Positions 3,493-64,000 of a stretch of DNA of 64,000 nt are shown here, piece by piece. Position 1 is the stretch's first letter; each line of letters starts with the position of its first letter. Under the pieces are notes generated by a model. That model was not told the origin of the DNA. It did not search any database and was given only the letters and a program-made list of their open reading frames with translations. The DNA is from Desulfobacteraceae bacterium Eth-SRB2 (GTDB lineage: Bacteria; Desulfobacterota; Desulfobacteria; Desulfobacterales; UBA11574). The DNA is taken from NCBI GenBank assembly GCA_004193595.1, contig RPGQ01000024.1, positions 16,017 to 80,016 on the forward strand. Direction: 5' to 3'. Position numbers and translations under genes: made by a program.

Positions 3493-3504
3493 GATTAAAG
3501 ATCT

Positions 3505-21834: not shown

Positions 21835-22140
21835 TTTCAGATTGATATTAAAAACAAGTTAGTTCGCTTTGCCCCGCCTGCCATTGCAAGGCACGAGTGG
21901 GCAGGTCACAATTGGAATGTTGGAACACTGGAATATTGGGTTCTGGGAAAATGGAAAGTTGGGTTATTGCAAAATTTCTATTGACGGGAATTAAATAGAG
22001 GAATGTCATCTTCTTTAAATCATCATTCCATTATTCCATTATTCCATTATTCCATGTCCGAGTTAAAAGTATAAGCCTAAAAGATATCTTTAATTTCAAG
22101 AGATTGTAGAATTTCCAAGACGTTAAATTAACATTTTCGA
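21835..22140. repeat. intergenic repeat family 3, long copy (contains (CCATTATT)x3.5 tandem and degenerate TGGAA-like repeats)
   Basis: Shares ends with 44172-44311 (aagttagttcgct...cacaattggaatg / tccgagttaaaaRtataag.ctaaaa...aattaacat). Tandem cattccattattccattattccattattccatg at 22023-22056. Confidence 0.55.
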
Positions 22141-22658: not shown

Positions 22659-22943
22659 CAAAGCGATAACCATTATTGCAAAAAATGTTTCCTATGAAAC
22701 ATGATGAACTCGTAAAAAGTCCGATTTAGACGGTTTCGTAAAAAGTTCAAATTCCCCCGCCAAACATAGGCGGGATAAAAAGGCGTTGCAAATTTTGTAA
22801 TCATGAGGCGTACTTTTCGTACGTTGAATGATTGCGAAATGCAGCACAACGCAGAAGTTGGACTTTTTACGAGACCGTCAAACATAAATAGTTCTTATCC
22901 AAAGTATAGATCCTCCTTAAAATATCAAATTTGGAGGAACACT

Positions 22944-27989: not shown

Positions 27990-29054
27990 ATGAAAATAGC
28001 ATTTATTCATTATCATCTCAAAACCGGCGGTGTAACCACGGTGTTACGGCAACAGGTGGAAACGCTCCGTGATACGTGTGACATGATGGTATTAACCGGC
28101 GCGCCTCCGGAATCGTCCTTTGTTTGCGACACCGTTCATATACCGGGACTGGGTTACGATCGCGGGGATCAAAATAGATCGGACCCCGAAGATATTGCAG
28201 CCGCCATCACCCGGGCGATCCATCTAAAATGGAAAGGCGGATGCGACCTTATCCATGTTCATAACCCCACACTGGCAAAAAACAGGGATTTTTTGAAAAT
28301 TCTCAAAGCGCTCCAAAACAAAAAGATCAAACTTTTTCTTCAGATCCATGATTTTGCGGAAGACGGTCGACCCTTAGTATACTTTTCTGAAGATGAATAT
28401 ATTCAAGACTGCCATTATGGGGTCATTAATTCAAGGGATTACAATATCCTGATCGAATCGGGATTAAAAGAAAAGGGGTTGCATAAAATTTTCAACACCA
28501 TAACTCCTTTTAATTTAAGTGCAAAAGGAGCACCCCCAAAAAACCTGGTTTTGTATCCGATTCGAGCACTCCGGAGAAAAAATATTGGGGAAGCAATTCT
28601 TATCTCCCTGTTTTTCAAAAACAATGAAACCCTTGCAATTACCCTTCCGCCCAACAGCCCGGCAGATCTGGAAAGCCATGCGCAATGGAAGGCGTTTGTA
28701 GAAGAAAAGAATCTGAATGTAATATTTGAAGCAGGTTTATCCCATGAATTTTCAGAACTTGTCATGTCCGCCAGGTTTATTATCACCACAAGTATTACCG
28801 AGGGATTCGGATTTTCATTTCTCGAACCCTGGACTGCAAAAAAAATCCTATGGGGAAGGAATCTACCGGAAATATGCCATGATTTTGAAAAAAAGGGGGT
28901 CTGGTTGGATCACCTTTACACACGTCTGGCGGTTCCCGTGGAATGGCTCGGTAAAGAAAAGTTATTTAGGACCTGGAAGGCGTGCATACGAAAAGCGTGT
29001 TCCCTATTCGGCATAGTTATCGATAACACGAAAATCGCCCAGTCACTTCTTTAA
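27990..29054 (+). CDS. GT-B fold glycosyltransferase (family-4-like)
   Basis: N-terminus MKIAFIHYHLKTGGVTTV. C-terminal region resembles a retaining GT-B nucleotide-sugar domain. The ORF-track start at 27954 is TTG. The ATG at 27990 is preferred. Confidence 0.6.
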   Translation: MKIAFIHYHLKTGGVTTVLRQQVETLRDTCDMMVLTGAPPESSFVCDTVHIPGLGYDRGDQNRSDPEDIAAAITRAIHLKWKGGCDLIHVHNPTLAKNRDFLKILKALQNKKIKLFLQIHDFAEDGRPLVYFSEDEYIQDCHYGVINSRDYNILIESGLKEKGLHKIFNTITPFNLSAKGAPPKNLVLYPIRALRRKNIGEAILISLFFKNNETLAITLPPNSPADLESHAQWKAFVEEKNLNVIFEAGLSHEFSELVMSARFIITTSITEGFGFSFLEPWTAKKILWGRNLPEICHDFEKKGVWLDHLYTRLAVPVEWLGKEKLFRTWKACIRKACSLFGIVIDNTKIAQSLL

Positions 29055-29123
29055 AAATTCTAATAATCGCGCCGAATCTGAGAGAGAAAGCTTTTTGGTT
29101 TTCGATATATTTTTCACCGTATT

Positions 29124-30586
29124 CTACAACGGCAAAACACTTTCAAAGTTTAGCCCTCCTTTGGCACCCGTGTTTACAGCCGCGCCGTTGAATGGTATCC
29201 TGGTTTTTTTCCACCTCATGGTCAAAATCCGCCCTGACTTTGAAAATTTTATTAAATTTTGAATCATGGTTCTGGAGCAGGTGAAAACAGGTGGATAGCC
29301 GCTGAACAAGACAACCTTTGACTTCCAGCGGGGACCGGTTCCGGCCGAAGGGATGATGTGCCGTATCCCAGGCCTGGAAGCAAGATCTTCTATAAAAGGA
29401 GCTTTGTTTCTTGTAACGCACGTTTGAGCGCTTCCCACACGAACGCCGGGTTCATGAGGTGATAATTCGATTTCCATTATCAGACAACCGCCGTTGGCTC
29501 TGGCGGAGAGTGATCCGGCCTGGACCATGGTAAAGTCTTTGTGATAATGGTTCTATATGCTCTTTTTCAATTTGGCCGAAAACATTGTGATGCGTCGGAT
29601 TTGTTTCAAAATAACCGGGGCGCTCTTTTAAAGGATTTTGATCTACCAACACATTGACCTTATAGTTGAAAGAGGTTTGGCATTTGAAACATGAAGCCCT
29701 CAATGGGTGATTTTGCTTCCTGAGAAGATATAAAACTCTTTAACGTTTTCCAGAATATCCTCCTGCAATCTTCGTCCAGAGCAGAATGCTTTGCATCCCT
29801 TGTATTGTTCCTCCTTTACATTATCTATCCGTTGTTTCACTACGAACAAAGGATTTCTTCCATGAGCTTTCAACTTGAGAAGTCATTACCTGGTTGATTT
29901 TATTGCCTCGACCGTATAATGACTTCTGGATTGAACCATACTGATCCTTTCCTCGATTTCGATTTCTGTTTCCTCTGAAGGCCATAAACTCCTCCGGTGA
30001 AATCGGCTTTTCCTTTTTAACAATGGGGATGGTTTGATACCCAATTTTGGTCCTGTTAAGCTGATATTATCTCTTCTTTTCCTTTGCCGACGCTTCGAGC
30101 GCTCTTGAATGACCTTCTTTTGTTGATCAGGAATAGCCTTTTTGGATTTCAGATTGTCTCTGGTGATACGATCTCATGCTCAAAGGCTTTGGGCAACTCT
30201 TTTCAGATCATCAATTAACTTGTTTATTGTTTTACTGAACTGGTTGCTTTGCTCTGTGGGCACGGGCTTCGGTTTTGGGGTGGTATTCATCCTTAAAATT
30301 GCTGACCATGCACCAATCCACGGGTGACGGAAGCGGTTTTTGCTTGCTTGTCGACCAGGTCTCTGATGATGGTAGATTTACCGGTGCCTTCTAATCCTGT
30401 GACAAAAAAATGTTGTAGCCCCGACTTTCTTACATGTTCAGGCCGAAGTTTATGGCTCCGAACCGCCCGTTCCTGTCCGATGACTTCATCCAGGGATTTA
30501 CTTCCGCAGTATTTCTTAAAGGTAAACATCTTGTGATCACATATTGACCTAAGATCCGAAGGCTTTAATTCGCATGTTTTTTCATA
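29124..30586 (-). pseudogene. degraded inverted duplicate of the 5' 60% of the Lon-like protease gene
   Basis: Fragments in three frames match the intact gene at 33619. 30293-30529 matches MFTFK..DEVIGQERAV..FVTGLEGTGKSTIIRDLVDKQAKT. 29452-29703 matches YKVNVLVDQ...FETNPTHHNVFGQIEK. 29143-29421 matches LLQNHDSKFNKIFKVRADFDHEVEKNQDTIQ exactly. The start region has A6 versus A7, which frameshifts it. Confidence 0.78.
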
Positions 30587-31426
30587 ATCTTCTTCTCCTT
30601 AAAAAATAAAAATTCAATAACCGGATAATCATCACAGGGCAATTATAAGGATGTTCTATATTCATATGTTTTTTAAAATTTAGCAAATTATTAAGTTTCA
30701 AGATAATGATGAGGGTGTGATGGAAAGGATACCGGACAGCCTGTCAAGAATTTGTCGATTTTATTTTATTTGCTCACCAAGGTTTTTAACGCGGTTCTTA
30801 TTATAATATTATAACTATAAGGAATTATAATGAAAATATAGATATTTAACATGGGAATGATGCCACTGGCATTTGCTATTGCAAAAATTAAGAAAAGAAG
30901 AATGTCAGCGTATATTTATGAGAAAAATATTGCATATCAACAGATATCGTAGGAGAGGAGACGGTTTGCCAAGCATGGAACCGGTTCAAAAGAAGTCGGC
31001 ACCGATAGATAGACGCCGGAAAGTGAGAGACGGCATAACCCTTAAAGGATTTTGATCGCAGGTAGAACAATGATCCATATTACAGTGGCTCCTGAGAGGC
31101 GTAGCAATATGGATAGAAGAAGTGGGATGGAATAATATGCTGTAAAATAAAATGGTTACCATCGCCCACAAAAGACTTTTACGAATGTTTCAATATTGCT
31201 TTTGCAGGAATCTTTCATATAAATTAAAAAAGCACAAAAATGTGAAAGTAAAGATCCGGGTCCAGAGGGGGCCTGGTTTTTGATTATCCCCAGAGGGATT
31301 TAGTTTGTCGGCATTTAACGATTTTACGAAGTAATGGAGTATTGGAGGGTGGAGTAATGGAAGAAACCCCTTTTCATCGCTCTCAGAAAACAGATCCCTG
31401 AGAAAATCTGAAAATTTAAAGCTCTT
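30587..31426. repeat. left arm (non-coding part) of the about 2.3-kb inverted duplication; mirror of 32781-33618
   Basis: The reverse complement of 30527-31426 aligns almost base-for-base with 32781-33680. A small ORF intact in the right arm is broken here (extra T plus TAG). Confidence 0.8.
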
Positions 31427-31572
31427 TTAAATCAACACTCCAATACTCCATTACCCGGTTGATTTATACGGGCAGAGCCATTGATTCTGACCCCGCAATG
31501 GGACAGGTTAATGGCCCAGCCTCCGCCCATAGGGAGGACCAGGGTTTTAGAACCCAATAAAAAACGGCTAAA

Positions 31573-44171: not shown

Positions 44172-44311
44172 GATCAAGTTAGTTCGCTGAGTTTATGCTG
44201 AGAAACGAAGTGCTCACAATTGGAATGTCCGAGTTAAAAATATAAGTCTAAAAAATACCTTTATTTCCAATAAATTGTAAAATTTTCGAGATGTTTAATT
44301 AACATCGAGTT
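44172..44311. repeat. intergenic repeat family 3, short copy
   Basis: Homologous to the ends of 21835-22140. Lies immediately 5' of the radC start, just as the long copy lies 5' of the rsmG start. Confidence 0.5.
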
Positions 44312-45329: not shown

Positions 45330-45357
45330 TGGCTAATCACCTCAACTATAAATGATC

Positions 45358-45590
45358 GTATCCGTTCACGGGTTCAGGGTTCAACGTTCAGGGTTAAGGA
45401 CAAAAAAGCAATGAAGATCCGAAGTCCTCGTTACAAATGTTCATTTTTCCAAGTATTTGCCAATTTGGCTTCAAATTTTGGATTAGGCCTAACGAAACTG
45501 ACGCTTTTCTCGTAAATACGCATCCCAAATGTAGCCCGTGGACGAGAATGGAACCTTGAACCCCTGAACCTTTGAACCGTGAACGGTTAC
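45358..45590. mobile_element. MITE family 1, copy B (233 bp) at the 3' end of gyrA
   Basis: TIRs GTATCCGTTCACGG...CCGTGAACGGTTAC. 8-bp TSD AAATGATC on both sides. The gyrA TAA stop (45587-45589) lies within the terminal GGTTAC. Confidence 0.78.
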
Positions 45591-48022: not shown

Positions 48023-48177
48023 ATTAAACCACCCGCCTGAACCTTGAACCTTTGAACCCTATACGGTTAAGGGTTAGTATTTTTGTAAGTGTTCACAGAT
48101 TTTTTAAAATCACAAATTACAAGCACCAAATTTCAAATAAATTCCAAATGCCAATAACCTAAACTATTTCTATTTTT

Positions 48178-48411
48178 GTATCCGTTCACGGGTTCAGGGT
48201 TCAACGTTCAGGGTTAAGGACAAAAAAAGCAATGAAGATCCGAAGTCCTCGTTACAAATGTTCATTTTTCCAAGTATTTGCCAATTTGGCTTCAAATTTT
48301 GGATTAGGCCTAACAAAACTGACGCTTTTCTCGTAAATACGCATCCCAAATGTAGCCCGTGGACGAGAATGGAACCTTGAACCCCTGAACCTTTGAACCG
48401 TGAACGGTTAC
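48178..48411. mobile_element. MITE family 1, copy C (234 bp), 156 bp upstream of gyrA
   Basis: Same orientation as copy B and over 98% identical to it. 8-bp TSD CTATTTTT. Confidence 0.78.
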
Positions 48412-48577
48412 CTATTTTTTTAGTATTGATGAAAATATTTTTTTCAATTCGTTTGCTTTTCTTCAAGATCATAAGGTTTCGAATTTTGAATTTCGGTCAT
48501 TGTGATTTGTTTGTTTTTTGGGATTTGTTATTTGGAATTTCCACAAAATCAACTACTCCATGAACCGTTACTATTTT

Positions 48578-50006: not shown

Positions 50007-50296
50007 CTGTGTTAATCTCCTTTAAGTGTAAACATTTCTCGAAACGCCTTTTACTCAAAATTGATGAGGTTTAAAAAGCAATAACTTGATAATATTAGTT
50101 TTTTCTCTTTTTAGTACGGCGAAGCCGCATGATATAGAATCGCGCAATCATTGTATAATTTGTAACAATAACATTTAATTAAGTAAAGGAAAAACAGACA
50201 AACCTGTTTATTTTTTGTATAGTCATAAAGGTTTGACGATCCTGGTTTTTTTTAATAACATATAAAGAATTTTATGGTCAAAGGTCTCGAGACAAA

Positions 50297-51079
50297 ATGT
50301 GCCTGATTGTATTTTCCTACGATATGCATCCCCGTTACCGGTTGATACTTGCCGCTAACCGGGACGAAGATTACAACCGTCCGACAGCGCCGCTTTCTTT
50401 TTGGGATGACGCGCCAGGCATTTTTGCCGGCCGTGATTTAAAGCATAATGGAATGTGGCTTGGGGTTTCCCGGACAGGACGAATTGCCGCCATCACTAAT
50501 TTCAGAGAACCTGATTTTCGGATTGCAAATGCCCCTTCCCGTGGTTTTCTGGTGGGCGATTTTCTGGTCTCAAAACAATCTGCCAAAAATTATATAGAAC
50601 ACGTTAAAACTATGGGGCACAGATTCAATGGGTTTAATCTTTTTGTCGGAGACAGGTCCGAGCTATTTTATTATTCCAACAGGGGAAACAGCATTAAGAA
50701 AATAAAACCCGGCTTATACGGTGTGAGCAATCGATTTCTTGACACGCCATGGCCCAAGGTGGTTAAAGGAAAGGCTGATCTTAAAAAACTGCTTGATAAG
50801 ACTGAAAAAATAGACTCTGAAAACATATTCGGTATTCTGAAAGACAGCTCTTATCCACCGGACAACGCGCTACCGGACACCGGCATCGGCCTCACTTGGG
50901 AACGGATTCTTTCCCCCTTGTTTATCACAAGCAGATTTTACGGAACACGCTCATCTTCAATCGTTTTGATAGAACGCTCAGATAGAATAACCTTTTTAGA
51001 ACGGACATTTATTTCAGATGGCGCTGTATCCAGAGAGGAGAAAACCCGAAAATTCACCTTTGATATAAAATCGCAATAA
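50297..51079 (+). CDS. NRDE-family protein (DUF833/TANGO2-like)
   Basis: N-terminal MCLIVF...LAANRDE signature. Confidence 0.8.
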   Translation: MCLIVFSYDMHPRYRLILAANRDEDYNRPTAPLSFWDDAPGIFAGRDLKHNGMWLGVSRTGRIAAITNFREPDFRIANAPSRGFLVGDFLVSKQSAKNYIEHVKTMGHRFNGFNLFVGDRSELFYYSNRGNSIKKIKPGLYGVSNRFLDTPWPKVVKGKADLKKLLDKTEKIDSENIFGILKDSSYPPDNALPDTGIGLTWERILSPLFITSRFYGTRSSSIVLIERSDRITFLERTFISDGAVSREEKTRKFTFDIKSQ

Positions 51080-51256
51080 ATTATGGCGCCGGGTTAATAT
51101 GATTATTTAATACACCAAAACTTATTGAGAAGTTACCCTCTGATATGATATAGTATAGAAAATTTGAGGAAAAGCCTTGACAAACAGACCATAGCTGCTT
51201 AGTTTTTTTTATAAAAATGTTCTTTCTCATCTTTTTACCCCAAACAATCTCTTTGT

Positions 51257-51620
51257 GGGGGCGAAACGGCTTCGACGGGGATAAAGAAGCATCGGCTGCA
51301 TGCCAAGCTCCTGCCGGCTTGTAAAAAAGGCGGGAAACTTAAAGTAATCGCAGACGATTATAATTACGCTTTAGCCGCTTAAGGCTAACGTCCTACCGGA
51401 TTATTCCTGCGCATCCGGCAAGGGCGTCGACAAGCAGGATAGCCGGTCCCGATATCCCGTTAACGGATCGGTCCTGCAGGCGGCTTTTGCGAAGGTTATG
51501 GGTTTCAGGCGATTGCGTCCGCACTCTTTTATCATCTATCTTGTTATCGTTTTCGGAGATCAGGTATTGCATTTCAATACAAAACAAGCCTTCCAGTAAA
51601 GGCGGAGTTTGATCAAAACA
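51257..51620 (+). ncRNA. ssrA: tmRNA-like (ssrA) sequence; 5' acceptor/TLD half and tag ORF recognisable, 3' T-arm/CCA not found
   Basis: GGGGGCGAAACGGCUUCGACGGGG 5' consensus. Tag reading frame gca gac gat tat aat tac gct tta gcc gct taa (51350-51382) encodes ADDYNYALAA*. The 3' end is approximate. Confidence 0.55.
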
Positions 51621-51639
51621 GTTTCGGCGACGAAACAAT

Positions 51640-54600
51640 ATTTATATCCTATTTGCTGGCGTGACGATATGGCAGGTTTCCGCGTAAAGTCGCTCAAACC
51701 GGTATTTCGAAGATCTACCTGATTCTTTATTTCTATTTATTTTCTATTTTTATGCGTGACATCGGCGCTGACTTGTTTTGAAAAGTTATACGCCTAAATC
51801 GGTGCTTTTGCCTCGGCAAGCCATTTTAAGATTCAGCATTGCTACGGCGAAAATCAAAATTGCGATTAGATAGTATTGATCACGGCAAATGACAACAGCC
51901 GAAAGTCGTCAGTTAACGGTGGTAAGTAATTGACCAGTCACACGACACCGGCATGCTCATCAAAATGCCCAGCCGCGAAGTACCAGCGCCGCCATATACG
52001 ATTTCGACGTCTCATCCAGCAAAATGAAATGTCATGGCCTTTGATCTGCTCCGCATGATGGCGTTTATTTTCTAGATCAGTATAAGTTAGGTGCTGGTTT
52101 GCGTACGATTTCCCCATCAATCTTAATTTAGGCAGACTCTAATCGTTTTTATACTTTATCTCGCAATAAGCTTCGTTTTAGTAACTCTTTGGGCTCTCTA
52201 CCAGTGTCGCGGAAGACTCAGTACCTTAGCTGAAAGCGCTCGCCAGACAAATAGAATGGTGCGAAAGGTTTTAGTTAAATTTTCGGTGCGTAAAGTTTCC
52301 TTTATCCATAGGTGAGCCCCAAAAGTAGCGTATGTAGTCCAACGATATGTACAGCCAGAATACAAAACCACCGATAGCGTAAGTACTGAACTCTTCCCGC
52401 TCAAACAGCAGTGATTACATTTGTCAACAACTTCAACAAGACGACCATGAAAAAGACGATCGCGTAACGATAAACACTGGCTCTGCTTTTCGCCGGACCC
52501 GACCGCAGCAGATGACCCAAATATCCGGCCCATTCAGCCCTTAACGGCGTACTAATAACATTTTAATTGAACGTTTTTTCGTGATCTAAACGTAGCGTTT
52601 CACCGTAAAAAGCGGTAATTGTATCTTTAACCAGAACCTTGATCGGGATTAATTTCTGGCTGGATTAATTCTGTTTTAGCGTTTAATCCGGCAACTCCGA
52701 CCATGAAAATCATTCTTTAATGGCAGCAGTACGTTTGAAGAACGCTTTATAAAATTGATAGGTCGCATGGTGATAGAAAAGCTTAAACTGGAAGAAAAGA
52801 AAACCGCGCGGCGATTTGTCCGAAATGAGGCGCGCAACTATCCGGTTCCTGATTTACTCGAACAATTTGATTAACCTTGATGTAAGGGGCCCAAAAAGCT
52901 TTATGCTCAACCGTTATTTGGTTGTAACATAGGATTTTGAGGCGGTTTATTTGATACCAGCAATAAAAGGAACAACCCCAGAATTTATTACAGATTTTAT
53001 TGAAAGCTGCACAATCAATGTAAAACGCTCAGCAAGTTACAAATTACTTCCAGGATTGCTGATGATTTTCGATGCCAAATCAGCCGCAATCACTATTTCT
53101 TGAGCTCGCGACCCAGGACATTGACGTGAATTAAATGAAATGATTAGCAGATATTTTGTACCAAGTTTTAAAGTGCCGGATGGAAAGCCAGCCATCGATT
53201 TTGTATAGTCAATTCCGCACCTTAGGCTTTATTTTGATCTGGTAATCGCGATTTCATCTTTGGACGTCAGCGCTTAAAGCGAACTTTTTATTGCTGAACG
53301 CGTTGAAGTTTCTGTAGTCAAATTTGATTACCTGGATTTCATATTTCTGATGGTCCCAGATTCCAATTAATCTTTTAAAGCAAAATATGCTAATCACTTC
53401 CTGTGGGAGGCACCAGTCCGCCGATCTTGATCTTTTATTGATTGGATATAATTTAATCATCAGCAATCCCGGTGCTTTCGCGGCCAGTCCGTTTTAGTCG
53501 GCGATGGAGGCATGGCGTTATGAAATCGCGTAAACAGATCCTAATCATCGCCCTTTGCAAATGAAAACCGGACTCCACTAAAAATCAGTTAATTCTAGAA
53601 TCTGTGGTGGAAACTTTAATCGAGATGCTCGGCACCCGCCTCCAGGCAAATGGCGATAGGGCGAAACCAGGTAAAGGGATTTTCGGTGTCTTTTATGTTA
53701 AAGGGCCTCATAAAGCTGCACTTCCAGCAGCAAACCGTAAACCTAAACCCACGATGTTTTGTAACTTAGTTATGTCGCATCTTCTTTTTCGGCGCGGCGG
53801 TAAGGAATTGAAAAACGGGTGGATAATCAAAACTCGAAAATGGATGAAAAAGAGACACCAGTCGAAGTTTCATCTGGATCTGGTGTTCTGACGAATCTTT
53901 GTATCGCGGGATAAACTTAACAACCTGAAAACCGGCTGGAAGCGCATTAATTCCAGGCGTATGCGCCAAAATGATACGATCTCTCGGAGGCTCAAATAAA
54001 TTAGGTTATGCTCAGTTCTGGAAATCGATTCATAGTGCGCGACGCCGCTAAACCGACATCGTACTAAAACGCCACCGAAAGCAACGGCGAACCATTGCAT
54101 GTGGAAAATGAAATGACAGCTGAATCTGGAAAAGAACCTGCGCAGGCGATTAAATAAGAAAATTAAGGCGTTTTGCTGAAAGTTGATAGAGACCGATTGT
54201 CATGGTCGGTGTTTGAGAGGCGTCAGGCAAAACTGCTGGCGGCAAAAACCGACCAAAACCTACTCACTTAAATAAAACCCACCAACGCGTCGACGCCGCC
54301 CTTCGGGATTATAAAATAAGCAAAAGTGGCGTTTTGATGTTTTACACTCGATGAAAGACGATCGTCAGAAGAAAATATATTGATAATGTTAAGATTTTGA
54401 AATTAGCTTTCAGGAAAATTAAACTGCTTCGGGATTTTGGCGTAATGGAAGGCATATGCGCGGCTTAATTTGTTCACCATCGGTTTATTTCTGACTCTTT
54501 CGTGGAGCCGCCGGCTTCCTCCCTGGTTTTTAGATCATAATAATTTAAACTGTAACTCCATAAAATAAAACCCGCCTTGATGGTGCAACCATACACCAGC

Positions 54601-57600
54601 CCGATCTCGATCCATTACGCCCCGCTATATACACCCCAAAACCCTAAATGGGCGAACCAGCAATCCAAGCATTATCACAGCAGGAATATGGACTATCTGG
54701 ATGAAATCACAAAATAATATCACCATGGCTTTTATCCGCGCTTGGAAAGGGCGAAGATGCAATTCAAGGACGTCGAAGAACGCCCCACCAGCACCACAAG
54801 TCTCCGAATTCTGCGACTGATATTATTTGAGAATCCATGACCAGTTGCTGCTATTCCAATAATGGCGATTGATGGCGGAAAACAGATATTTTATGACGGC
54901 TCCATTACCGATCCCCTCTGTAATCGTTTATCCCCCGAATAATCATCCAGGAGAAGCCATATTTTCGTTCAGCAGTCTGTTTCATCCCCAGTGGCAACAT
55001 TTGCGGCGGAAAACGGTCAGTGGTATTGGGAATTGTATTAGTTTTTCGGATTAACATCAACGGAAATGAGATGAAGCTCGGGGAAAGGGTGACAGGTAAA
55101 TCCCAATTTGTAAATTATTATGATTGGGTGGAAACCAGCGTGCAATCGTAATTCAAAAGGAAGACCTAAAACCAGTTGCCACGACCGCGAAAATCATTCG
55201 CCAACCTGTGGAAATGGAGCCGGATGGATTTTCTATCCTTTTTTCAAGAATAAAGTCGCTTTCCTACGCACTTTAAATCTTTCAAAAGCGCTATGAAATA
55301 GGAGTATTAGGAATGATTATATTTGGCGTCGGCCATATTCATTCAAAATATAAGCAAGCCTTTACATTGTTTAACGATGCTGCCGCGCTTATCTCTGTTT
55401 TGCCGGGGCGGTATCTATGGTACGGTATGTTGAAAGAAAGTGCTGAGTTTCGATGGCGAAACACGGCTCTGAGACCGACGAAATGGATTACGAAGGGCAA
55501 CCGCATTTGATGAAATTTTAACTCAGGTTAATACTGGTTCTTTGACCTCCAGGGTCATTTGTTAAATGCCGCCAAAACGAAGGTTGAGGAATGGTTTCTA
55601 CCCCATTGCCAAAACTGGAAGTGTATTTGCTAGTAAGATATCCATTACTTTGTCGGAATTATTACGTCTCCGACACTGCATGGAGGATTCTTCGCAATGG
55701 CGTAAGCGGAAATGGGCTTAACTATCCTGTTTTTACGGAGAACAATCTCTAAGATCGTACATTTACAGGCGACAACTGTTCGGCTATTGCTGATGGAAAT
55801 TAATAGAAATATCTGCCTTCGGTCTTATCTTCAAGGGCGTATTGGTCCTGTGGGATGGCCAAACCAATAGCCCAAAACTGCGTTAGAGCCCCATCATTGC
55901 GTTGACCGCGATAAAACCGACGGGGCCGAACGCACGGGAAAACCAAACTGGCGATGACTGTTGAACGTTCCCATCGGTTAAAAGGAGATCCGCGAGGTAC
56001 TGCTTGTTTCTTTCAAAATCACACGGCGCGTCAGGCCTCCAGGGATTACGCTATGCGTAACATTCAAACAATGGGCGAAGATCGGTCGATCGTTAAGAAA
56101 GCCATGTTAGAAAACCCTATACCGCCTTTGGCAACCGATATTCTTTTGGGTAGATCGGTTTTTATTCACAGTGGCGACCAAAATGCCATGTTCCGAAGCT
56201 CGAAAATTCCTGAGAATTACAAACAGTTTGAAGGCGACACCCGATGCGCCTGTTACCAACCGGCCGACAGTTTGTTCGGTCACTCCCTATAACCTTCCTG
56301 ATATCAGTGCTTTGTGGTACCCTTGGATTTTGAATCAAGATATCATTGAGTATGCCGCTTTACCGGCATCGATTACTTCAGTTGATAATCGGATTGTTTA
56401 TCGCGAGGTTGATTTTGAAACGGAAGACATAGACGAATTTCAAGAAAACTATAAAGCGGCTCCATTCCTGCAAAGCGTTTATCACGTCTTTTGTGGCAAA
56501 ACCAAATTATTTAGGTGCCAGGGTAAAATTAATTGACAGGTAAATATTCCAAACATAATCTAAAAAATCGGTCTCGCCAAAGCCGATAGATTGGGTGCAG
56601 AAACAACTCCTGTAGATATTTCGCCGGGTTTCGGAAGGTTAGCCGAAACGCCCGTTACCGAGCAACAAGGTAATGGCGCGCGATCACTGAGTGGGGCCCG
56701 GGATGGGTAAAACAAACGATTTTCGATACGCTGTCTCTTAAAGTTTCTTTTTCCAAACTTCCTATTAATATATTGCTGGCTGCTCCGACCGGAAGAGCTG
56801 CAAAACGAATGAATGAAACAACCGGGCATGAAGCAAAAACAATCCGGCTTAAGAATTTGCTTCGAGTATAGCATTCGGTATGGCGGATTCCCGAAAACGA
56901 TGAACAACCTTCGGATTTCGGTTATGATTTATTTCGATTAATCGATGAAGTTATCGACGTCCTGACGCATTAATTTTTAAAGTGCTTATCCTGTAGCCAG
57001 CTGACTCTTCTCCTTGTTGGAGATGTGAACCAGCTCCCTTCCTGTCAAAGCTGGAAATGTATTAAAGATATTATCCGTCTCGTACCGGTGGCAGGAGCCT
57101 AACGAAAATATTCCGGCTCGTGGCTGAAGATGAAATCGAGAATAACCAACAATTCCATAAAGTACCATTAAATTTGCGCTCGTATTCCTTCATTTCAGAC
57201 TCTGCTGTGACATGGATTCTTTTATTTTATCTCAGTGCGAAGCCGATCCGGAAGACGCATTGATGGATTATTTTAGAACTTGCTAAGGATCGTATGTACT
57301 CCGACAGTGATTCGGATTTGGATCCTTTGATGACATTATTGTGATTTCCTTGACACTCTATACCGTGCCAGATCAAAGTCTGCTTTCTAAACTCAAACGC
57401 CATCGAACCAAAACCAAAATCCCGGTGTAGGCTGGCGTATGCAACATTAGGGTAACAGAAATTTCAGAGTCAACGACAAGGTCATGCAGATCAAGAATAA
57501 TTATGATTGCCGATATTCTTTAATCGATATCGGAATGAATTTCCAGAATAAACTGAAGGAGTGGTCGGTGATCATCAATATCTGACGGAGTCGACCCGTT

Positions 57601-60600
57601 GAATATGACTATACAGACCTGGATTGAAAATTGTCCCGGCATTATGGCGTTTCCAGTCTGAGCAGTCGCATGATCTGGAATATCCTGGCTGTGGATTATC
57701 CCTGATTTTGTAATTCTTTACTACTACTTCGGTGCCATTGATGGATTTTGGTTGCAATGGAATTTTGATTTATACAGCTGTTTACCAAGAGGCTCTGCTT
57801 TCGGTTTGTCTGCGGGTTTGGGAAATCAAAGAAAGAATTGCGTATGATCTATGTCAGGGAATCGATAAAACCCGGTTTCATTGATACGCAACTGTTATAC
57901 GCCTGAACCTCATGAATGTAATTGATTTAAGATTTGCTTATTTAATTATAATGACTCCCTGAATCCATAGTCGAAATCAGATCGGGTAACAGCTTAAATT
58001 CCAAAAAAATAGGAGCCTCCATACGCCAAAGAACAAGCCTGGTGATGACTCACCAAAGTCAGTGAGATTAACATCTGTAACCCTGACTCAAAATCCACCC
58101 CTGGCTCTACCAAAAACGGCTTCATGACCACAAATTATATGCAAACCTTCCTAGAAAACAAAGCGTCCCCGAACTGGAAGCAGCCACGCCCCACCAGCCG
58201 TAGTTCCTGCACCAGAAGCGTTAAAGCGTTATTGAAGTCCAGCCAGTGAGAACCCGGCCACAACCGGCAAAGCGGTGATGGTTTACGCCCTACCTGCGCC
58301 TGTTACGGCGTCATGAATTTGTTCAGGCGGAAACTTCCTCGGCAGCGGATCAAATTAAAATTTAGGCGAAAAAGAGCAGAGCAACCGTCCAAACCCAATG
58401 GCCCAGAATATTTCTATTGCCCCGGTTTTCGTACGAACGTTTATGGTTTGGAATGCGTCCAAAATCCGGGTAATGTAAAAAGAACTGCCGCAGCTTCTGA
58501 AATTAGTATGGCCGTTCCCGAAAGATCCGCGATGATAGTGTAGAGGGTGGTCTAACTGTGCTTTCCATAGGTGTTCCACCGCGGCACCGCATCGTTAACC
58601 CTCGCCATCCCGAGCCAGCAGGTGCCGTAGCAGCAACGTTTGCAGAAACGCAACAGATATTTGTAACTTCTGGCGCTCCGCTGATCAAAAACAAGATGCG
58701 CGGCTGGATCGGCTCCATGCTTTAATCGATGACTTTGCAAGTGGGATTTTATCTGGATTCTGTTAGAGATCGTCAAGAGGTAAGGGTCATCTGAAACCGC
58801 TTCCCTTAAAAATTGCTGATGGTCGCCCAAATCAGCAAAACAACCTGAAGAAACAAACAGGAACTTTTTTTCATTTTCGAGGACATGGCGCCTGGTTCTT
58901 GTCCCCTGTTTGCAAGGCAGCCGGCATAAGTACTGGAGAGCTTCCTTCGATTTTGTTGAACTTGCGCTTTCGCATTATTTCCTGTAATGAACGGTAAATT
59001 ATGGCGTTCAGCGCTTTATTTCGCTATGGGCAAAGCGAAGTTTAAAGCCGCTCACGCCGTATGCCTCTATGCGGATTGAAACGACAGTCAGGCTCCTGAA
59101 CAGATGGTTTGCATATGAATAGCAAACATCGCCAGTCCCCGTACTGAAGAGGCGTACAAGCAATATGCGCTGACAGTTAATCGTATTAGTCAGACCTAAT
59201 CTCGGCGACGTCTTTGTGAAATATTTTGCAAAAAATACTCCGATGAAAGCGCCATTTCAGCGTTCAAATCCTGGAAGATCTGGCTTGAATCAACGCCGGG
59301 CGGAATAGGCTGAAAGTATGCCTGGTAACGGCAAAATCAGCCTTCCGGATAGCGTTTATTAGCGCTTTAAGTTCCGCCTATCAAAGTCCGCAAGAGAACG
59401 TTAACAATTGAACCTGCGCTATTTGCGGAGATTATCTTGAAAAGATCCTGGGTAATTGAAATTTTGGCGCGTTTATGGCATCACTTCACTGCGGCTGGCT
59501 TCAGAGGGATGGGGCGTATGAATTGGCGGCGATGCGATGCAATATTCACCAAGACCGCTATGAGTGCGGCGGAAACTCCTGGATATCGCGGCGGACGAGG
59601 TAAAGCAGATTTATCGATCGTAATACGGATAAATCCTCCTGGGGATTTCGTTCGTGGTATGATTTTATCCTCGGTCGTCATTTCTGGATTTCTAAGAGAA
59701 CATGGTGTTGATCGAATGGCTTTCCTCAAACCATTCATCCCTTTGCCTTGGCCTAATTCCTGTATTTCTGTTTTTCTAGAATCCTCCGACTACCTTAACG
59801 AAGTCGAAAGTGAAAACATCTTAGAAAGCCGAACCTCAAAAGAAACATTCCAAAGCCTATCCTGGTATGTCTCAAATTTTTTTCCCCATCCTAATTCTAT
59901 TTCACCCCTAATCATCTTTTCATTAAATTTTTTTTCGATGACCGAGATATATTTAAATTAGAGAGTTCGTAAATGGCATTTCTTGAAGCACGAGTTTTTT
60001 GTTGATCAAGACAAAAGTCGGTTAAAGAGTTTCTTGGTTTCTATTTTTAAACGCAAGGCAGGCATGATATGGCGTAAAAATCCGGTCGAAACAGTGCCGA
60101 GCAGCCAGCATGAATGTACTTTTCGGGATTTCCGTAATGGAATACTGGGGAAATTCCTGGAGGTGTCTGAAAGTGGATGCGATTGCGTTGAGAAGGTTTT
60201 GAATCTGATTTTAAATAAACTGCTGATATAAAGGGCGTGGTAAAATATCCCGACGCGATCCCGATTCTGTATTTCTTGGTGTTCTATAAACTCAGGTTCT
60301 GTGGTAATTATTTCCCAGCTCTACATCGTTTCGATATATAATATTAATAACATTATTATATATTTTATCATATACTTCCATATTGAAATCCAAAACACCC
60401 TGGCACTCTGGATTTTAAAGTTCCATCGAAATTCTATCTACCTACCTGTCCGCGACATTTATTATGATTCATAGGCGGTGACAAAAGAATTGTGGTACCG
60501 ACAGATGCGGGTTTCTCCCTGCGGCGGCGCAACCGGCGAAAATGTCCGATGCAGAAAATGTCCGATGGAAAATTCGAAGGATCACCCTTAGTGCTATGCT

Positions 60601-61290
60601 CATGGATGATAAATGACAAACGCCCATCCTGCGTCCATGATTCGGCAATGATTTTTTATCAGGATTTTTAACCATCCGGCTCATCAGTCATGGAAACAAT
60701 CTTGCCGGTTTATTTCATTATCTTTATAGGAAAATCTCGTTGTCAGAAAACTCTCAAAGTTCCTACCGCCACCTAGATAAGTTCTTGAATTATGCCCTTT
60801 ATATCCGGAAACCGAAATCTGTTTCACAAGGCGCAACCGAGGGCGGCTTAAGCGGCGAGGCAATTAATTAATAGCCGAGGAGGCGTTTCTATCCTTTGGA
60901 AATATTAATCCATTGTGGTCATTTTGCAACTCCTGCTTCGGAGTGAAACGACCGATGATCCAGCGAACCTGCGAAATGCAGGCGAGGATCTTTGGGAGAA
61001 TCGAAACGTTATCGAAAACAGCCCAGTCGGGCAACGAGACAGCGTTCCGTCGAATCTGATCAGGTAAAGCGCCAACCGGGGCACGGTTTGGTATTACTGT
61101 AAGTTTACGACGTTCTGCGACAAAACCCAGTCCTTTTCGAATCCGGTGGGCGGTGCCTTCGCAGGATCTAACCTGCCACCACTAAGGCCGGTGGAGGGCG
61201 GCGGTTTCAACCCAAGCGTCCTTCGTGGAACATTCCTGCGTGACGGGCGTTCCGGCGACATTACTATTATCCTGAAAATTTCTAATTTCG
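51640..61290. other. about 9.7-kb ORF-poor segment of decayed (or artefactual) sequence
   Basis: No ORF above 174 codons in any frame. Overlapping short ORFs in three frames. Protein-motif remnants interrupted by stops. k-mer texture differs from 1-51 kb. Confidence 0.6.
56650..57110 (+). pseudogene. RecD/TraA-like SF1B helicase remnants
   Basis: Translation fragments WGPGMGKTN (Walker A, 56692-), PINILLAAPTGRAAKRMNETTGHEAKTIRLKNLL (motif Ia, 56761-), DLFRLIDEVIDV (motif II-like, 56926-), VGDVNQLPS..W.CIKDI (motif III, 57016-). Stops and frameshifts separate them. Confidence 0.5.
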
Positions 61291-61299
61291 CCTTCCTGC

Positions 61300-61598
61300 A
61301 AGTCCTTCCCAGGCATGATGCGTTTCGATAGGTCATCCCGCAAGGCCGATTCTACCGGATCCGTTTAACGCGGATTATCGACCGGCTTATCCTGTGTTTG
61401 TCGATCGCCCTTGCTGGATGCGCAGGAATTAATCCGGTAGGACGTTAGGCCTTGTTTTGCCTGTAAAGGCGTAATTATTTAATCGTCTGCGATTACTTTA
61501 AGCCCGCCTTTTACAAGCCTGCAGGGAGCTCGGCATGCAGCTGATGCTTTATCCCCAGGTCAGTCGTTTCGCCCCTACTAAAGAGATTGTTCTGTGAT
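61300..61598 (-). pseudogene. second, degenerate tmRNA-like copy (inverted)
   Basis: Reverse complement begins GGGGCGAAACGACUGACCUGGGGAUAAAG... and aligns to 51257-51560 at roughly 75-80% identity. The tag frame is destroyed (gca gac gat taa). Confidence 0.45.
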
Positions 61599-61609
61599 GA
61601 GGAAAGAAC

Positions 61610-62700
61610 TGATATTTCATAAACTGCCCATTGGCTAGTTTCTTCCTCTGCACCTCTTTCTATACTATATCATATCAGGAGGGTAAACTTTCACCAAGTT
61701 TTGGGTGTATTTTCAAATTTAATCATATTAACCTGGCGCCATAATTTATTGCGATTTTATATCAGCGGTGAATTTTCGGGTTCTTTCTCCTTCTCTTGGA
61801 TTGGGAAGTCAATTCAAAACAAACCGTTCCGCAGTACGTCATCTCCATCCGACAGTTCCACAAACGATTGAAGATGAGCAGTCCTCTAAATCTGCTTTGG
61901 CGTGATTAAATCAAGGGGAAAGAATCCGTTCCTAAGCGGAGGCCGATGCTGGTGTGTCCGTAGAAGCAAGGTTTGTCCGGTGGATAAGAGCCTGTTCCTT
62001 TCTCTTAGAATAATTCCTGAATGATGTTCTCTTCTAGAGTCTATTTTTCTTCAGTCTTATCAAGCAGTTTTTAAGATCAAAGCCCTTCCTTCAAACTAAT
62101 CTTGGGCCGTTTTAAGTGCGTCACAGGCAACTCTGATTTGCTCGGCCTTTCACCCTCCGTGTCACTCTGAATTTGTTTCCTGTTTTTGGAATTAAATAAA
62201 ACAGCTCGGACCTGTCCTCCTGACCAAAGCTGATTTAAAAACCCCATTTAACGCTGCGCCCAGCGCTTCCAACGGAAACGATAATTTTGGTAGATTTTGT
62301 TTCGATGACCTTGTAATCGCCCCACCATGAAAACTCATTTTGGTATGTGCGATCGGCAGAACCGAAATCATAGTCCCGAAATTTTAGGTGATGGCGCAAT
62401 TCGTCCTGTCTCGTAGCAAAACCTCGCTTCACATTCCCATTATAAGCGGCGAAATCACGGGGTCAAAATGTTCTGGCGCGTCTTCATCCTAAAAAGAGCT
62501 TTACGTTTGTCGGATTTGTTGGTAATTCCTTCGTCCTGTCGGTGAAGCAAAAGAATCCTGCGAAACGACGTTAACGAGGAATACGTCCAGCAACACGAAG
62601 TCCGGATGACAATCTTCTTTAACGTTAAAATTCGCCAGTATGTTATTAAAACCAAGATCAAACCTTTATGACTTTTATAGTTGCGCGGCAATGGTAAACA
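61610..62700 (-). pseudogene. degraded inverted copy of the NRDE-family gene (plus its 3' flank)
   Basis: Nucleotide homology to 50940-51250 (e.g. gagaaggagaaagaacccgaaaattcac cgctgatataaaatcgcaataaattatggcgcc). Peptide remnants LLLHRQDE (compare ILAANRDE) and FSWWGDY (compare SFWDDAPG). Confidence 0.45.
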
Positions 62701-62976
62701 GTATTCGTCTGTTTTCCTTTTACTTTAATTTTTGGTACCGTTATTTAGCGCATACTTTATCAGGCATTTTTGCAAAAATCAAGGCTTTTTTATTGTAATT
62801 TTAAGCATAATACGCCAAAATGTCCCCAAATTGAGTGATTTTACAGCAACACATACTTTATCAAAAATTGCCGGCTAAAACCAATGCCGCTAACAGTAAG
62901 GCTTTCTTACAATCCAACCGTTATTTGCTATCATAGCTTTTTCCCCTGCCTCTTTTACTCATAACTGACGGTAATG

Positions 62977-63453
62977 CTATTTAATGGGGCCACTGGGATT
63001 GGTGGGCCAGTAAAACGGATCGTATTTCCCCTTATTATCCTTAGAATCTTCTGGTTTCTTTTCCGGGGTCGTGGATTTTTCTTCTGATTTTGATTGTCCG
63101 AGAGCCTCGGTCTTTTTCTCAGGAATTTCAATTATAGAATCTTTGTAAAGACTCATTTGAAGAGATTTTTCGGGCAGGATAACAATCTCTTTTTCCGTTT
63201 CTTTAACCCGCAGCACATGAGTTCCGGGCGCTACTTCCTTTAAAATTACCGGCGTTTTTCCAATATTAATGCCGTCTAAAAGAACATCGATCTCAGGGGG
63301 CTCACTGAATACCGACAGTCGTCCCATAGGTTTTTGTTGGCCTTCCAGCGTTCGAGATGGCTCGATCAACTCGGCGAACACAGATAAAGGTTGCATGATC
63401 AAGAAAACGAAACCAAAACCAAAAAGGACCATTAGTTTAATATTTATTTTCAT
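62977..63453 (-). CDS. secreted PEGA domain protein
   Basis: Signal peptide MKINIKLMVLFGFGFVFLIMQPLSVFA. PEGA-like DVLLDGINIGKTPVILKEVAPGTHVLRV. AGGGAG RBS. Confidence 0.68.
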   Translation of the reverse strand: MKINIKLMVLFGFGFVFLIMQPLSVFAELIEPSRTLEGQQKPMGRLSVFSEPPEIDVLLDGINIGKTPVILKEVAPGTHVLRVKETEKEIVILPEKSLQMSLYKDSIIEIPEKKTEALGQSKSEEKSTTPEKKPEDSKDNKGKYDPFYWPTNPSGPIK

Positions 63454-63492
63454 TTCTTATCTCCCTGATCGTATAGACATATTCCTGTTGAT

Positions 63493-63816
63493 TCAGATTA
63501 ACACCCGTTGACGCATGGTTTCCCTTATGTTACGACAACCGTCTATAATGCCGTGAATGATAACCACTTTGCCGACAATCTGATAGATTATTCGAAAATT
63601 TTTAATGACAATTTGACGGCATAACATTTCGCTGAAACCTTCAAGTTCAGATGGGACGTGGCCACGCTCAGGGTTATGTGACAAGCTGTCACAAGCCTGC
63701 GAGAGTATCCCGTATAACCGCTTGGCCGTTTCAGGCCTTCCACCGGCCTTGATATAGCGGTAAATTTTTAAGAGGTCTTGCCTGGCTCCGGTAGTGAATT
63801 CCACGGCAAAGCTCAT
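63493..63816 (-). CDS. type II toxin, ParE/RelE family
   Basis: 107 aa. YRYIKAGG...IIYQIVGKVVIIHGIIDG fold signature. ATGA overlap with the upstream antitoxin. Confidence 0.72.
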   Translation of the reverse strand: MSFAVEFTTGARQDLLKIYRYIKAGGRPETAKRLYGILSQACDSLSHNPERGHVPSELEGFSEMLCRQIVIKNFRIIYQIVGKVVIIHGIIDGCRNIRETMRQRVLI

Positions 63817-64000
63817 TTTTTAGAGAAATCCTTTGAAATCATGTCGTCGAATTCTTTAAGCAGTTGACCGGCCGGTATGGTTTTTCCCTCTTCAAAGTCC
63901 TTTTGCCCTTGAGCAACCATTTTGAGCAAAGCCAGTGCCTCTTGAATCCTCTCGTACTCGGTGATATCCTGAATGATCGCTTTAGCTTCTCCGTGTTGGG
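63813..64000 (-). CDS. type II antitoxin (Phd/YefM or ParD-like), 5'-partial at window edge
   Basis: Translation ...AKAIIQDITEYERIQEALALLKMVAQGQKDFEEGKTIPAGQLLKEFDDMISKDFSKK*. Confidence 0.6.
   Translation of the reverse strand, partial: QHGEAKAIIQDITEYERIQEALALLKMVAQGQKDFEEGKTIPAGQLLKEFDDMISKDFSKK

Follow-up and report, generated by a model that had tools for sequence, protein, structure and literature searches.

The window, which is the whole 64,000-nt stretch of DNA analysed here, is part of one 94,436-nt deposited contig of the metagenome-assembled genome (MAG) "Desulfobacteraceae bacterium Eth-SRB2". We take Eth-SRB2 to be the sulfate-reducing partner in an ethane-oxidising enrichment culture and a widely used reference MAG. 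Six proteins of the window match proteins from the RZB35913–RZB35922 range of this contig exactly, and two of these six are ORFs that lie in the interior of an abnormal block. With an inverted copy of the TANGO2–ssrA region included, this block extends from 51473 to ~62765 and is larger than the initial annotation had it (51640–61290). It is bounded on the left by an intact gene and a truncated tmRNA gene and is followed on the right by clean sequence; a second, shorter abnormal segment lies elsewhere in the window. The features are:

29041..31429, minus strand: second garbled inverted copy, whose clean source (32779–35164) covers the 5' 1.5 kb of the gene for a Lon-like protease together with its upstream region
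50127..51472, plus strand: clean "left arm", consisting of an upstream region, the intact NRDE/TANGO2 gene, an intergenic region and the first ~215 nt of ssrA
50297–51079, plus strand: intact NRDE/TANGO2 gene (Pfam TANGO2, 2e-75; exact match to RZB35915, SRB2_02713)
51257..51472, plus strand: genuine 5' part of ssrA, with the tag frame intact (ADDYNYALAA*) and the T-arm and 3' acceptor strand missing
51473..61189, no strand assigned: garbled interior, unique sequence without a coherent reading frame
52198..52533, minus strand: spurious ORF, GenBank hypothetical protein SRB2_02714 (RZB35916; exact match to the deposited protein, no Pfam match)
56694..57732, plus strand: RecD2-like (SF1B) helicase remnant, corresponding to residues ~352–688 of a ~740-aa protein, with frameshifts and stops throughout
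59437..59961, plus strand: spurious ORF, the longest of the block, GenBank hypothetical protein SRB2_02717 (RZB35919; exact match, no Pfam match)
61190..61581, minus strand: garbled full-length ssrA copy with a degraded 3' end, a broken tag frame (ADD*) and a destroyed T-arm
61582..62765, minus strand: garbled inverted copy of the intergenic region, TANGO2 and ~170 nt upstream (outer limit, 62765)
62977..64000, minus strand: clean sequence resumes, with a PEGA-domain lipoprotein, a ParE toxin and a partial antitoxin (proteins matching RZB35921 and RZB35922 exactly)
62977–63453, minus strand: PEGA-domain lipoprotein (Pfam PEGA; signal peptide; codon-usage log-likelihood ratio, LLR, 0.29)
63493–63816, minus strand: ParE toxin (Pfam ParE_toxin; codon-usage LLR 0.11)
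63813–64000, minus strand: partial antitoxin, overlapping the toxin gene at ATGA (codon-usage LLR 0.44)

The truncated tmRNA gene and the inverted copies

The left arm aligns colinearly to 39 related contigs (9 MAG contigs and 30 metagenome contigs, relatives ~98% identical included) at 92–98% identity, and in 39 of 39 the match to the window ends exactly at 51471/51472. In the relatives the tmRNA at this locus is intact, at 355 nt, and normal coding DNA follows it; the breakpoint in the window falls in the middle of the tmRNA, at ~nt 215 of 355. The left ssrA copy is near-identical to those of L001 and L002 through 51472 and unrelated to them beyond this position. It scores 56.2 bits against Rfam RF00023, above the 47-bit gathering threshold, with its 3' elements unaligned. 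The idea that this copy continues as a garbled 3' part of ssrA is rejected, since the sequence after 51472 does not resemble the genuine 3' part of ssrA (z = -0.8). The right ssrA copy obtains only 20.9 bits with Rfam; in its 3' part, the similarity to the genuine 3' end of ssrA is significant (z = 18.9). Neither copy in the window combines a tRNA-like domain with a tag frame, and ARAGORN finds no tmRNA gene anywhere in the window. Thus, what the initial annotation called a tmRNA-like gene is genuine over its first ~215 nt (51257–51472); it is not a complete gene, as the T-arm and the 3' acceptor strand are absent.

The same annotation had noticed inverted and diverged homology to the NRDE/ssrA locus at the far end of the gene-free stretch, and this homology is indeed present as a minus-strand copy at 61190–62765 (the right arm). 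The left arm, 50127..51472, is the source sequence of this copy. Relative to the left arm, the right arm contains 141 substitutions and 129 indel events (92 insertions, 37 deletions), an error profile of about 11–12% substitutions, 7% insertion events and 3% deletion events, and the longest perfect run between the two arms is 30 nt. The number of right-arm matches is 1020 with its own left arm, 1010 with the 98% relative L092, and at most 935 with the others (5–6% relatives). Distances from a multiple sequence alignment place the inverted copy at the tip of the left-arm lineage. Private-allele sharing rests on few strictly polarised sites, and it is mainly the pairwise match counts that show the strain's own sequence to be the origin of the inverted copy.

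The age of the copy can be set against its divergence. In intergenic DNA the window differs from L092 by 1.9%, and the inverted structure is absent from both L092 and L090. The copy differs from its own left arm, the sequence nearest to it, by ~12% substitutions and 129 indels; this is several times the change that its age allows and does not keep the clock of an evolving pseudogene. Nor do the changes reflect selection. Right-arm mismatch rates at the three codon positions are 0.148/0.133/0.139; orthologs show a strong third-position excess. Mismatch rates are likewise 0.368 in family-invariant columns and 0.351 in variable columns. A frameshift-aware alignment of the TANGO2 copy yields 23–30 frameshifts per ~830–840 nt (2.8–3.6 per 100 nt). 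The right-arm differences are non-evolutionary.

A second garbled inverted copy, at 29041–31429, adjoins its clean source, and here again the junction severs a gene: the source arm starts at 32779 and truncates a FapA-like gene. Between this copy and its source there are 114 substitutions and 114 indel events, with codon-position mismatches of 0.041/0.048/0.058, and the longest open frame is 142 codons in the copy vs 523 in the source. Positions 1–51 kb, described at first as behaving like normal coding DNA, are consequently not uniformly normal, since they include this ORF-poor segment.

The two copies share an error spectrum. Transitions at purines and pyrimidines stand at 50:20 in the first copy (p = 0.001) and at 26:11 in the second (p = 0.02), whereas natural controls are strand-symmetric, with a ratio of 1.1–1.3. 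The indel:substitution ratio is 0.91–1.00 in the garbled copies vs 0.13–0.54 in the genuine intergenic DNA of the lineage, where one natural comparison, of 109 nt, gave 0.62; the indel excess over natural neutral DNA is thus only 2–8 fold. A figure of ten-fold, which rested on mostly coding orthologs, was dropped. The transition:transversion ratio (ts/tv) of the garbled sequence, ~0.9, does not discriminate, because natural intergenic controls give the same value here. A spectrum that is strand-asymmetric and has an indel:substitution ratio above that of neutral DNA is not the spectrum of an evolutionary pseudogene.

The garbled interior and its helicase remnant

Between 51.4 and 62.9 kb the longest standard ORF is 174 aa, in agreement with the initial annotation, which had reported no ORF over 174 codons. 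Stops are spread evenly, at ~150 per frame in six of six frames, and the longest stop-free run, 196 codons, is near random expectation. The two interior ORFs deposited as proteins, SRB2_02714 and SRB2_02717, each form a singleton cluster among ~15 billion proteins, and their codon-usage LLRs are -0.153 and -0.010, respectively, vs 0.279 ± 0.072 for genuine genes. Of the open frames of at least 75 codons in the interior, 27 of 27 have the codon usage of spurious ORFs. The interior looks like ordinary coding DNA that has received dense substitutions and indels. Its period-3 signal is at full strength from lag 3 to lag 12 and lost by lag 15, and the block retains ~75% of the native dinucleotide information. 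None of the simulations with substitutions, insertions and deletions reproduced both the dinucleotide retention and the period-3 signal; simple random-noise models of the block fail on its k-mer bias and short-range periodicity. The corruption is not random-base noise of a simple kind.

Similarity searches with the interior return little. Nothing similar to it occurs elsewhere in the window, in 114 loci or in plasmids; phages give only a 74-nt match, to a helicase motif, and an exact 29-mer from it is absent from JGI metagenome contigs. A large protein search with the concatenated interior ORFs gave no matches; this search is uninformative, since it also missed the exact deposited proteins. 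There is no support for deriving the interior, as a noisy version, from what follows ssrA in L092, the closest relative. An apparent natural parallel, an ORF desert downstream of ssrA in L084, was a false alarm, as a 1134-codon frame there runs off the edge of the locus.

A six-frame Pfam scan detects AAA_19 (2.8e-13), AAA_30 and the RecD-like SH3_13 domain at ~56.7–57.5 kb on the plus strand and, beyond these helicase domains, nothing else in the 9.7 kb. This remnant matches RecD2 of PDB 3E1S. Its frame is interrupted by all three stop types, its Walker A motif is degraded (GPGWVKQ), and it lacks the continuous ~740-aa ORF, with N-terminal domain, motifs I–VI and SH3 insert, that characterises a RecD2-type SF1B helicase. 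In a frameshift-aware alignment it contains 21–25 frameshifts per 1,040 nt at 40–45% identity. The initial statement that helicase motifs are interrupted by stops is thus borne out, with frameshifts in addition; the idea of a remnant in a single frame without indels was overturned once this alignment was calibrated. When an intact gene is simulated with noise at the level of the right arm, the frameshift count of the helicase is reproduced, whereas decay by substitution only gives 0–2. The helicase remnant therefore carries the same kind of noise as the inverted copy, and one 148-nt stretch of it is cleaner than the average noise level predicts. The whole interior, 51473..61189, is probably corrupted in the same way as this remnant, which is the part on which the noise was measured directly.

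Origin of the block

Taken together, the 10-kb gene-free stretch is most likely corrupted, misoriented sequence that has been built into a public MAG, rather than decayed DNA. The block contains an error-laden copy of sequence from the same organism and is absent from the independent assemblies compared (the 39 related contigs and the JGI metagenome contigs). There is a good chance that 51473–~62765 is a technical artefact fixed in the Eth-SRB2 contig, consisting of error-dense DNA of the same strain joined in the inverted orientation. The cause is presumably either a chimeric fold-back molecule or a segment of long-read (or similar) sequence left uncorrected or unpolished, which would have entered through hybrid assembly or gap filling. 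Read along the minus strand, the block would run from TANGO2 through a complete ssrA into ~9.7 kb with a RecD2-like helicase gene, and it would have been joined, inverted, to the high-quality contig in the middle of ssrA. About one substitution or small indel per 5–10 nt would break all reading frames in the block. Such dense errors would account for the ORF desert and for the short ORFs that overlap in it, as well as for the interrupted helicase motifs and the degradation of the inverted copy; gene callers would then have yielded a few spurious hypothetical proteins.

Uncorrected long-read gap fills and chimeric (fold-back or inverted) joins in hybrid or metagenome assemblies have the same properties: error-dense sequence of the same strain that is indel-rich, strand-asymmetric and blind to selection; high-quality flanks on both sides; inversion relative to the source and junctions that sever genes; absence from independent assemblies; and spurious ORFan gene calls. 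To our knowledge, the error profile of the block, its native-like k-mer bias included, fits no single platform's typical errors. The simple form of the missed-adapter artefact is excluded for this block. If the interior were a missed-adapter (SMRTbell or fold-back) palindrome, its halves should align; they score 22, which is the null value, and simulated noisy copies score ~1500. No trace of SMRTbell adapter remnants was found in the block.

The initial annotation preferred a decayed integrative or mobilisable element that once targeted ssrA, and placed an assembly chimera or mutated segment second. Natural decay, whether of such an element or of an inverted segmental duplication pseudogenised by ordinary mutation, has several points in its favour. 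ssrA is a classic integration site for islands, the block lies directly after it, the DNA downstream of ssrA varies among close relatives, and a RecD-like helicase remnant is present. In addition, the k-mer statistics of the block are host-like, its ts/tv is that of natural intergenic DNA, and the deposited contig carries the block with both flanks. However, ssrA islands and prophages differ from this block in that here the break lies at ~nt 215 of the gene rather than at its 3' end, and no intact tmRNA is restored in the window. A direct att repeat is also missing: the ssrA 3' end is found nowhere in the window when up to 3 mismatches are allowed. The sole second copy of ssrA has its full length but is inverted, and TANGO2, the upstream gene, comes with it. 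No integrase is detected in a six-frame Pfam scan of 51473–61290, a scan in which dense frameshifts lower the power of detection.

The block shares with bacterial pseudogenes of host-restricted or bottlenecked genomes its broken ORFs, overlapping short frames and motifs cut by stops and frameshifts. It differs from them in being insertion-biased rather than deletion-biased, strand-asymmetric and over-diverged for its age, and in that the garbled blocks are sharply bounded beside pristine genes. A copy from the strain's own lineage (at most 2–5% divergence) with ~12% substitutions and 129 indels exceeds the neutral clock several-fold, the structure is missing from 98% relatives, and there are no clean gene-conversion tracts to explain the shared alleles. 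Natural decay is thus improbable. The ssrA-targeting element fails on the position of the break, the unrestored tmRNA and the missing att repeat, and "decay" in an evolutionary sense fails on the violated clock, the disregard of constraint and the strand asymmetry. The breakpoint, the clock violation, the constraint-blindness and the strand asymmetry instead favour the option ranked second, an assembly chimera or mutated segment. The more general judgement, that the sequence is probably non-functional and that its origin is the interesting question, was sound.

A process within the cell would have to be an unusual one. Fold-back inverted duplications beside their sources could have been hit by a strand-biased, indel-prone hypermutation undescribed in bacteria, which might involve, for example, error-prone synthesis on a hairpin or a single-stranded intermediate. 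Such a process would accommodate the two independent inverted copies that adjoin their sources and share a strand-asymmetric, indel-rich spectrum, as well as the gradient of noise along each copy. However, ~20% change with insertions every ~14 nt over 11 kb fits no known bacterial process, both ssrA copies would be left non-functional, nothing comparable occurs among the 39 related contigs, and strand-specific read errors are expected to give the same features. We regard this explanation as very unlikely. A non-standard genetic code, or in-silico manipulation or generation of the sequence after deposition, is rejected, and nothing speaks for it beyond the absence of ORFs. Reassignment of a single stop gives longest frames of only 188–286 codons, reassignment of one or two stops lengthens ORFs no more than rarity predicts, and the helicase frame holds all three stop types together with frequent frameshifts; the code was rightly ranked last at the outset. 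Since the two interior ORFs are exact matches to deposited GenBank proteins, the segment was not introduced after deposition, and the in-silico variant mentioned initially is excluded.

The block is most likely a data-quality problem and not biology; its biological significance is small, and its practical value is that of a database warning. Within these 64 kb alone the Eth-SRB2 MAG has at least two blocks that are corrupted and misoriented, and its record appears to be without an intact tmRNA at a conserved locus. The record also feeds spurious ORFan singletons, such as RZB35916 and RZB35919, into public protein databases. Regions of this kind will continue to turn up in searches for pseudogenes, decayed islands, non-coding deserts or orphan genes. 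They can be recognised without reads by the use of an internal duplicate as a clock, constraint-blindness, strand symmetry and a calibrated frameshift-aware alignment.

The ORF-poor block and the interrupted ssrA gene

Within ~51.4-62.9 kb of the window, standard ORFs reach at most 174 aa; elsewhere ORFs of 150–811 aa are densely packed. Each of the six frames of the block contains ~150 stops, the longest stop-free run (196 codons) is about the random expectation for the composition, and G+C content is unremarkable. With stops masked, a Pfam scan of all six frames reveals RecD-like helicase domains on the + strand at ~56.7–57.5 kb [AAA_19 (2.8e-13), AAA_30, and SH3_13] and no other domain. A large inverted repeat pairs ~50.1–51.47 kb with ~61.2–62.77 kb. 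Given these ORF, stop, repeat, and Pfam results, together with the Rfam match described below, the initial annotation was accurate in describing a region with no ORF over 174 codons, helicase motifs, and an inverted, diverged return of the NRDE/ssrA locus at its far end. The features are:

50127-51472 (+), left arm, clean, with the TANGO2/NRDE gene at 50297–51079
51473-61189, interior of the block
61190–62765 (-), right arm or first inverted copy, garbled: ~170 nt of upstream sequence, TANGO2, the intergenic region, and full-length ssrA with its 3' end
29041–31429 (-), second inverted copy, garbled
31430-32778, spacer: FapA/DUF342-like gene with one frameshift (~32440), truncated at 32779
32779–35164, clean source of the second copy: 5' portion (first 1.5 kb) of a Lon-like protease gene (805 aa, intact) and the region upstream of it

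ARAGORN finds neither a tRNA nor a tmRNA gene in the window. Rfam matches a tmRNA at 51265–51558 (56 bits), leaving the 5' acceptor strand, T-arm, and 3' acceptor strand unaligned, although the 5' acceptor strand is present in the sequence at ~51257. The locus was compared with that on 9 MAG contigs and 30 metagenome contigs (68–98% identity). An intact tmRNA of ~355 nt, with tag ADDYNYALAA, lies directly after TANGO2 in all relatives that reach far enough. In 39 of 39 contigs the match to the window breaks off at 51471/51472, ~215 nt into the tmRNA; this holds also for loci L092 and L090, whose identity across most of the flank is 97–98%. The sequence that directly follows 51472 is not significantly similar to the true 3' part of the tmRNA (z = -0.8). 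Downstream of ssrA the relatives contain ordinary coding DNA (a 1310-aa ORF in L092, a 1134-codon frame in another relative, L084), none of which the interior matches. One interior 29-mer, searched for exactly, is missing from the JGI metagenome contigs, and plasmid and phage collections yield nothing beyond one 74-nt helicase-motif match.

The contigs of all nine of the closest species-representative MAGs end ~20–1,700 nt past TANGO2/ssrA; thus, this locus is prone to break short-read assemblies. Such breaks would fit DNA after ssrA that varies among strains.

The flanking genes assign the window to the Desulfobacterales. RZB35921 of Desulfobacteraceae bacterium Eth-SRB2 is identical (100%) to the PEGA-domain protein encoded at 62977–63453, and exact look-ups place PerM (SRB2_02711), TANGO2/NRDE (02713), PEGA (02719), and ParE (02720) on one 94,436-nt MAG contig. 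The same contig carries the interior ORFs 52198–52533 (SRB2_02714) and 59437–59961 (SRB2_02717), whose proteins are singleton clusters among ~15 billion sequences. The odd segment therefore belongs to the public record and is not a later introduction.

The garbled inverted copies

Across 1,161 aligned nt, the first inverted copy differs from the left arm by 141 substitutions and 129 indel events (92 insertions, 37 deletions); its ssrA has a broken tag frame (ADD*) and a destroyed T-arm. Mismatches are even over codon positions (0.148/0.133/0.139), whereas orthologs contain no frameshifts and, as usual, differ most at third positions. Nor does the mismatch rate depend on conservation: it is 0.368 where 13 relatives are invariant and 0.351 at variable columns. 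In independent pairwise alignments the copy shares most matches with the window's own left arm (1020), followed by the 98% relative L092 (1010), relatives at 5–6% (921–935), and more distant ones; distances from the multiple alignment are additive and attach the copy at the left-arm tip. Thus, it was derived from the strain's own sequence. True intergenic divergence to L092 is 1.9%, versus ~12% substitutions plus an indel per ~10 nt between the copy and its source, and the copy contains no clean gene-conversion tracts that would reconcile these values (longest perfect run, 30 nt).

True intergenic DNA of this lineage served as the neutral-spectrum control, with ts/tv of 0.8–1.1 and indel:substitution ratios of 0.13–0.54 (0.62 for both in one 109-nt comparison). 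The ts/tv of the garbled copy (0.9) lies within the control values and was dropped as a discriminator; an apparent ten-fold indel excess, obtained against mostly coding orthologs, was revised to 2–8 fold against intergenic DNA. Strand symmetry discriminates better. As duplex DNA evolves, substitutions are near strand-symmetric; errors in reading a single strand need not be. The first copy has purine versus pyrimidine transitions of 50:20 (p = 0.001) and A-rich inserted bases, versus ratios of 1.1–1.3 (p ≥ 0.13) in five natural comparisons.

Comparing the window with itself reveals the second copy. Its identity to the source, counted over aligned columns, is 95.4%; 114 substitutions plus 114 indel events separate the two. 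Again mismatches are even over codon positions, every ORF is broken, and the strand asymmetry is alike (26:11). The source arm starts at 32779 by cutting the FapA-like gene, paralleling the cut in ssrA at 51472. The presence in 64 kb of two sharply bounded, garbled inverted copies beside clean sources points to a systematic technical cause.

About 200 nt at the inner end of this second pair (31279-31479, 32780-32944) recur in a metagenome contig that is unrelated (L102:2771-2988), adjoining that contig's own ssrA and TANGO2 fragments, which suggests a short mobile or dispersed element at the arm ends.

The interior and its helicase remnant

In all 27 interior open frames of ≥75 codons, among them both annotated "genes", codon usage is of the spurious, wrong-frame type (score 0.031 ± 0.094, versus 0.279 ± 0.072 for genuine genes). 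Period-3 autocorrelation has native strength at lags 3–12 and is gone by lag 15; in real genes it extends beyond 480 nt.

A first impression that the RecD2-like remnant lies in one continuous frame was overturned by frameshift-aware protein-to-DNA alignment, which places 21–25 frameshifts in 1,040 nt, many at identical positions across different homologs.

Helicase alignments and simulated genes
Observed, without frameshifts: score ~209, identity 31%
Observed, with frameshifts: score ~374, identity 45%
Simulated, intact or substitution-only decay: 0–2 frameshifts called
Simulated, intact plus right-arm-level noise: 21–25 frameshifts called, identity 38–41%, score 301–394

An intact gene overlaid with the dense substitutions and small indels of the right arm reproduces essentially what is observed. 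By one method, frameshifts per 100 nt number 2.8–3.6 in the right-arm TANGO2 copy, for which the true sequence is known, and 2.0–2.4 in the helicase. The remnant, the sole measurable spot in the interior, carries the same type of corruption as the first inverted copy, over what was probably an ordinary gene; by extension, the entire 11.3-kb block is probably corrupted likewise.

Among the closest database matches to the remnant, the majority are short pieces (100–245 aa) of RecD2-like proteins, some on long contigs (19–145 kb). In public metagenome assemblies, helicase genes seem often to be called in fragments.

Origin of the block and other repeats in the window

We consider it likely that the feature is an artefact of how a public MAG was assembled, and the block is most likely neither a decayed mobile element nor a new kind of non-coding region. 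The assembly chimera listed in the initial annotation is thereby favored: the garbled inverted copies are of the strain's own sequence, and the segment is absent from 39 related contigs. It could have arisen from a gap filled with unpolished long reads, from a chimeric molecule, or in some comparable way; a missed-adapter palindromic read is excluded. Dinucleotide information in the block is ~75% of native, versus ~35% in simulations, and short-range periodicity is kept, indicating corruption other than random-base noise. The two garbled copies are not equally noisy, and in both the noise increases toward the outer end.

The reading preferred in the initial annotation, a decayed element that targeted ssrA, did not hold up, given a break in mid-gene, a tmRNA that is not restored, and no att repeat; the six-frame Pfam scan, which has low power here, found no integrase in the block. 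Tests of the clock, of strand symmetry, and of distribution all speak against ordinary pseudogene decay. An alternative genetic code, rightly ranked least likely at the outset, is excluded: no stop-codon reassignment recovers long frames in the block, and the helicase remnant is frameshifted. Hypermutation of fold-back duplications in vivo, of a kind not yet known, would be without precedent and is very improbable. As a probable assembly artefact, the block is of low scientific interest, with some use as a data-quality flag.

The window also contains a dispersed repeat of ~230–260 nt (91–95% identical), with two direct copies around gyrA (48150-48411, 45332-45590) and one inverted copy 42 kb off (3263-3495). 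It has GAACC(T/C)TTGAACC-type short repeats, overlaps a 92-aa ORF (48194–48472), and is found too in the relatives L087–L092. Small intergenic repeat families at 21850-22134, 22702-22883, and 44225-44305 are common to related MAGs and resemble the MITE/REP-type pattern; several pieces of the MAG contigs L001 and L002 match 21850–22134 in both orientations, and L087 and L088 have a ~155–180-nt element similar to 22702–22883 on both sides of the TANGO2–ssrA pair. Positions 63493-64000 (-) hold an intact toxin–antitoxin pair of type II, with a ParE toxin (107 aa) after a partial antitoxin ORF (ATGA overlap); in relatives, too, many toxin–antitoxin genes and transposases surround PEGA.
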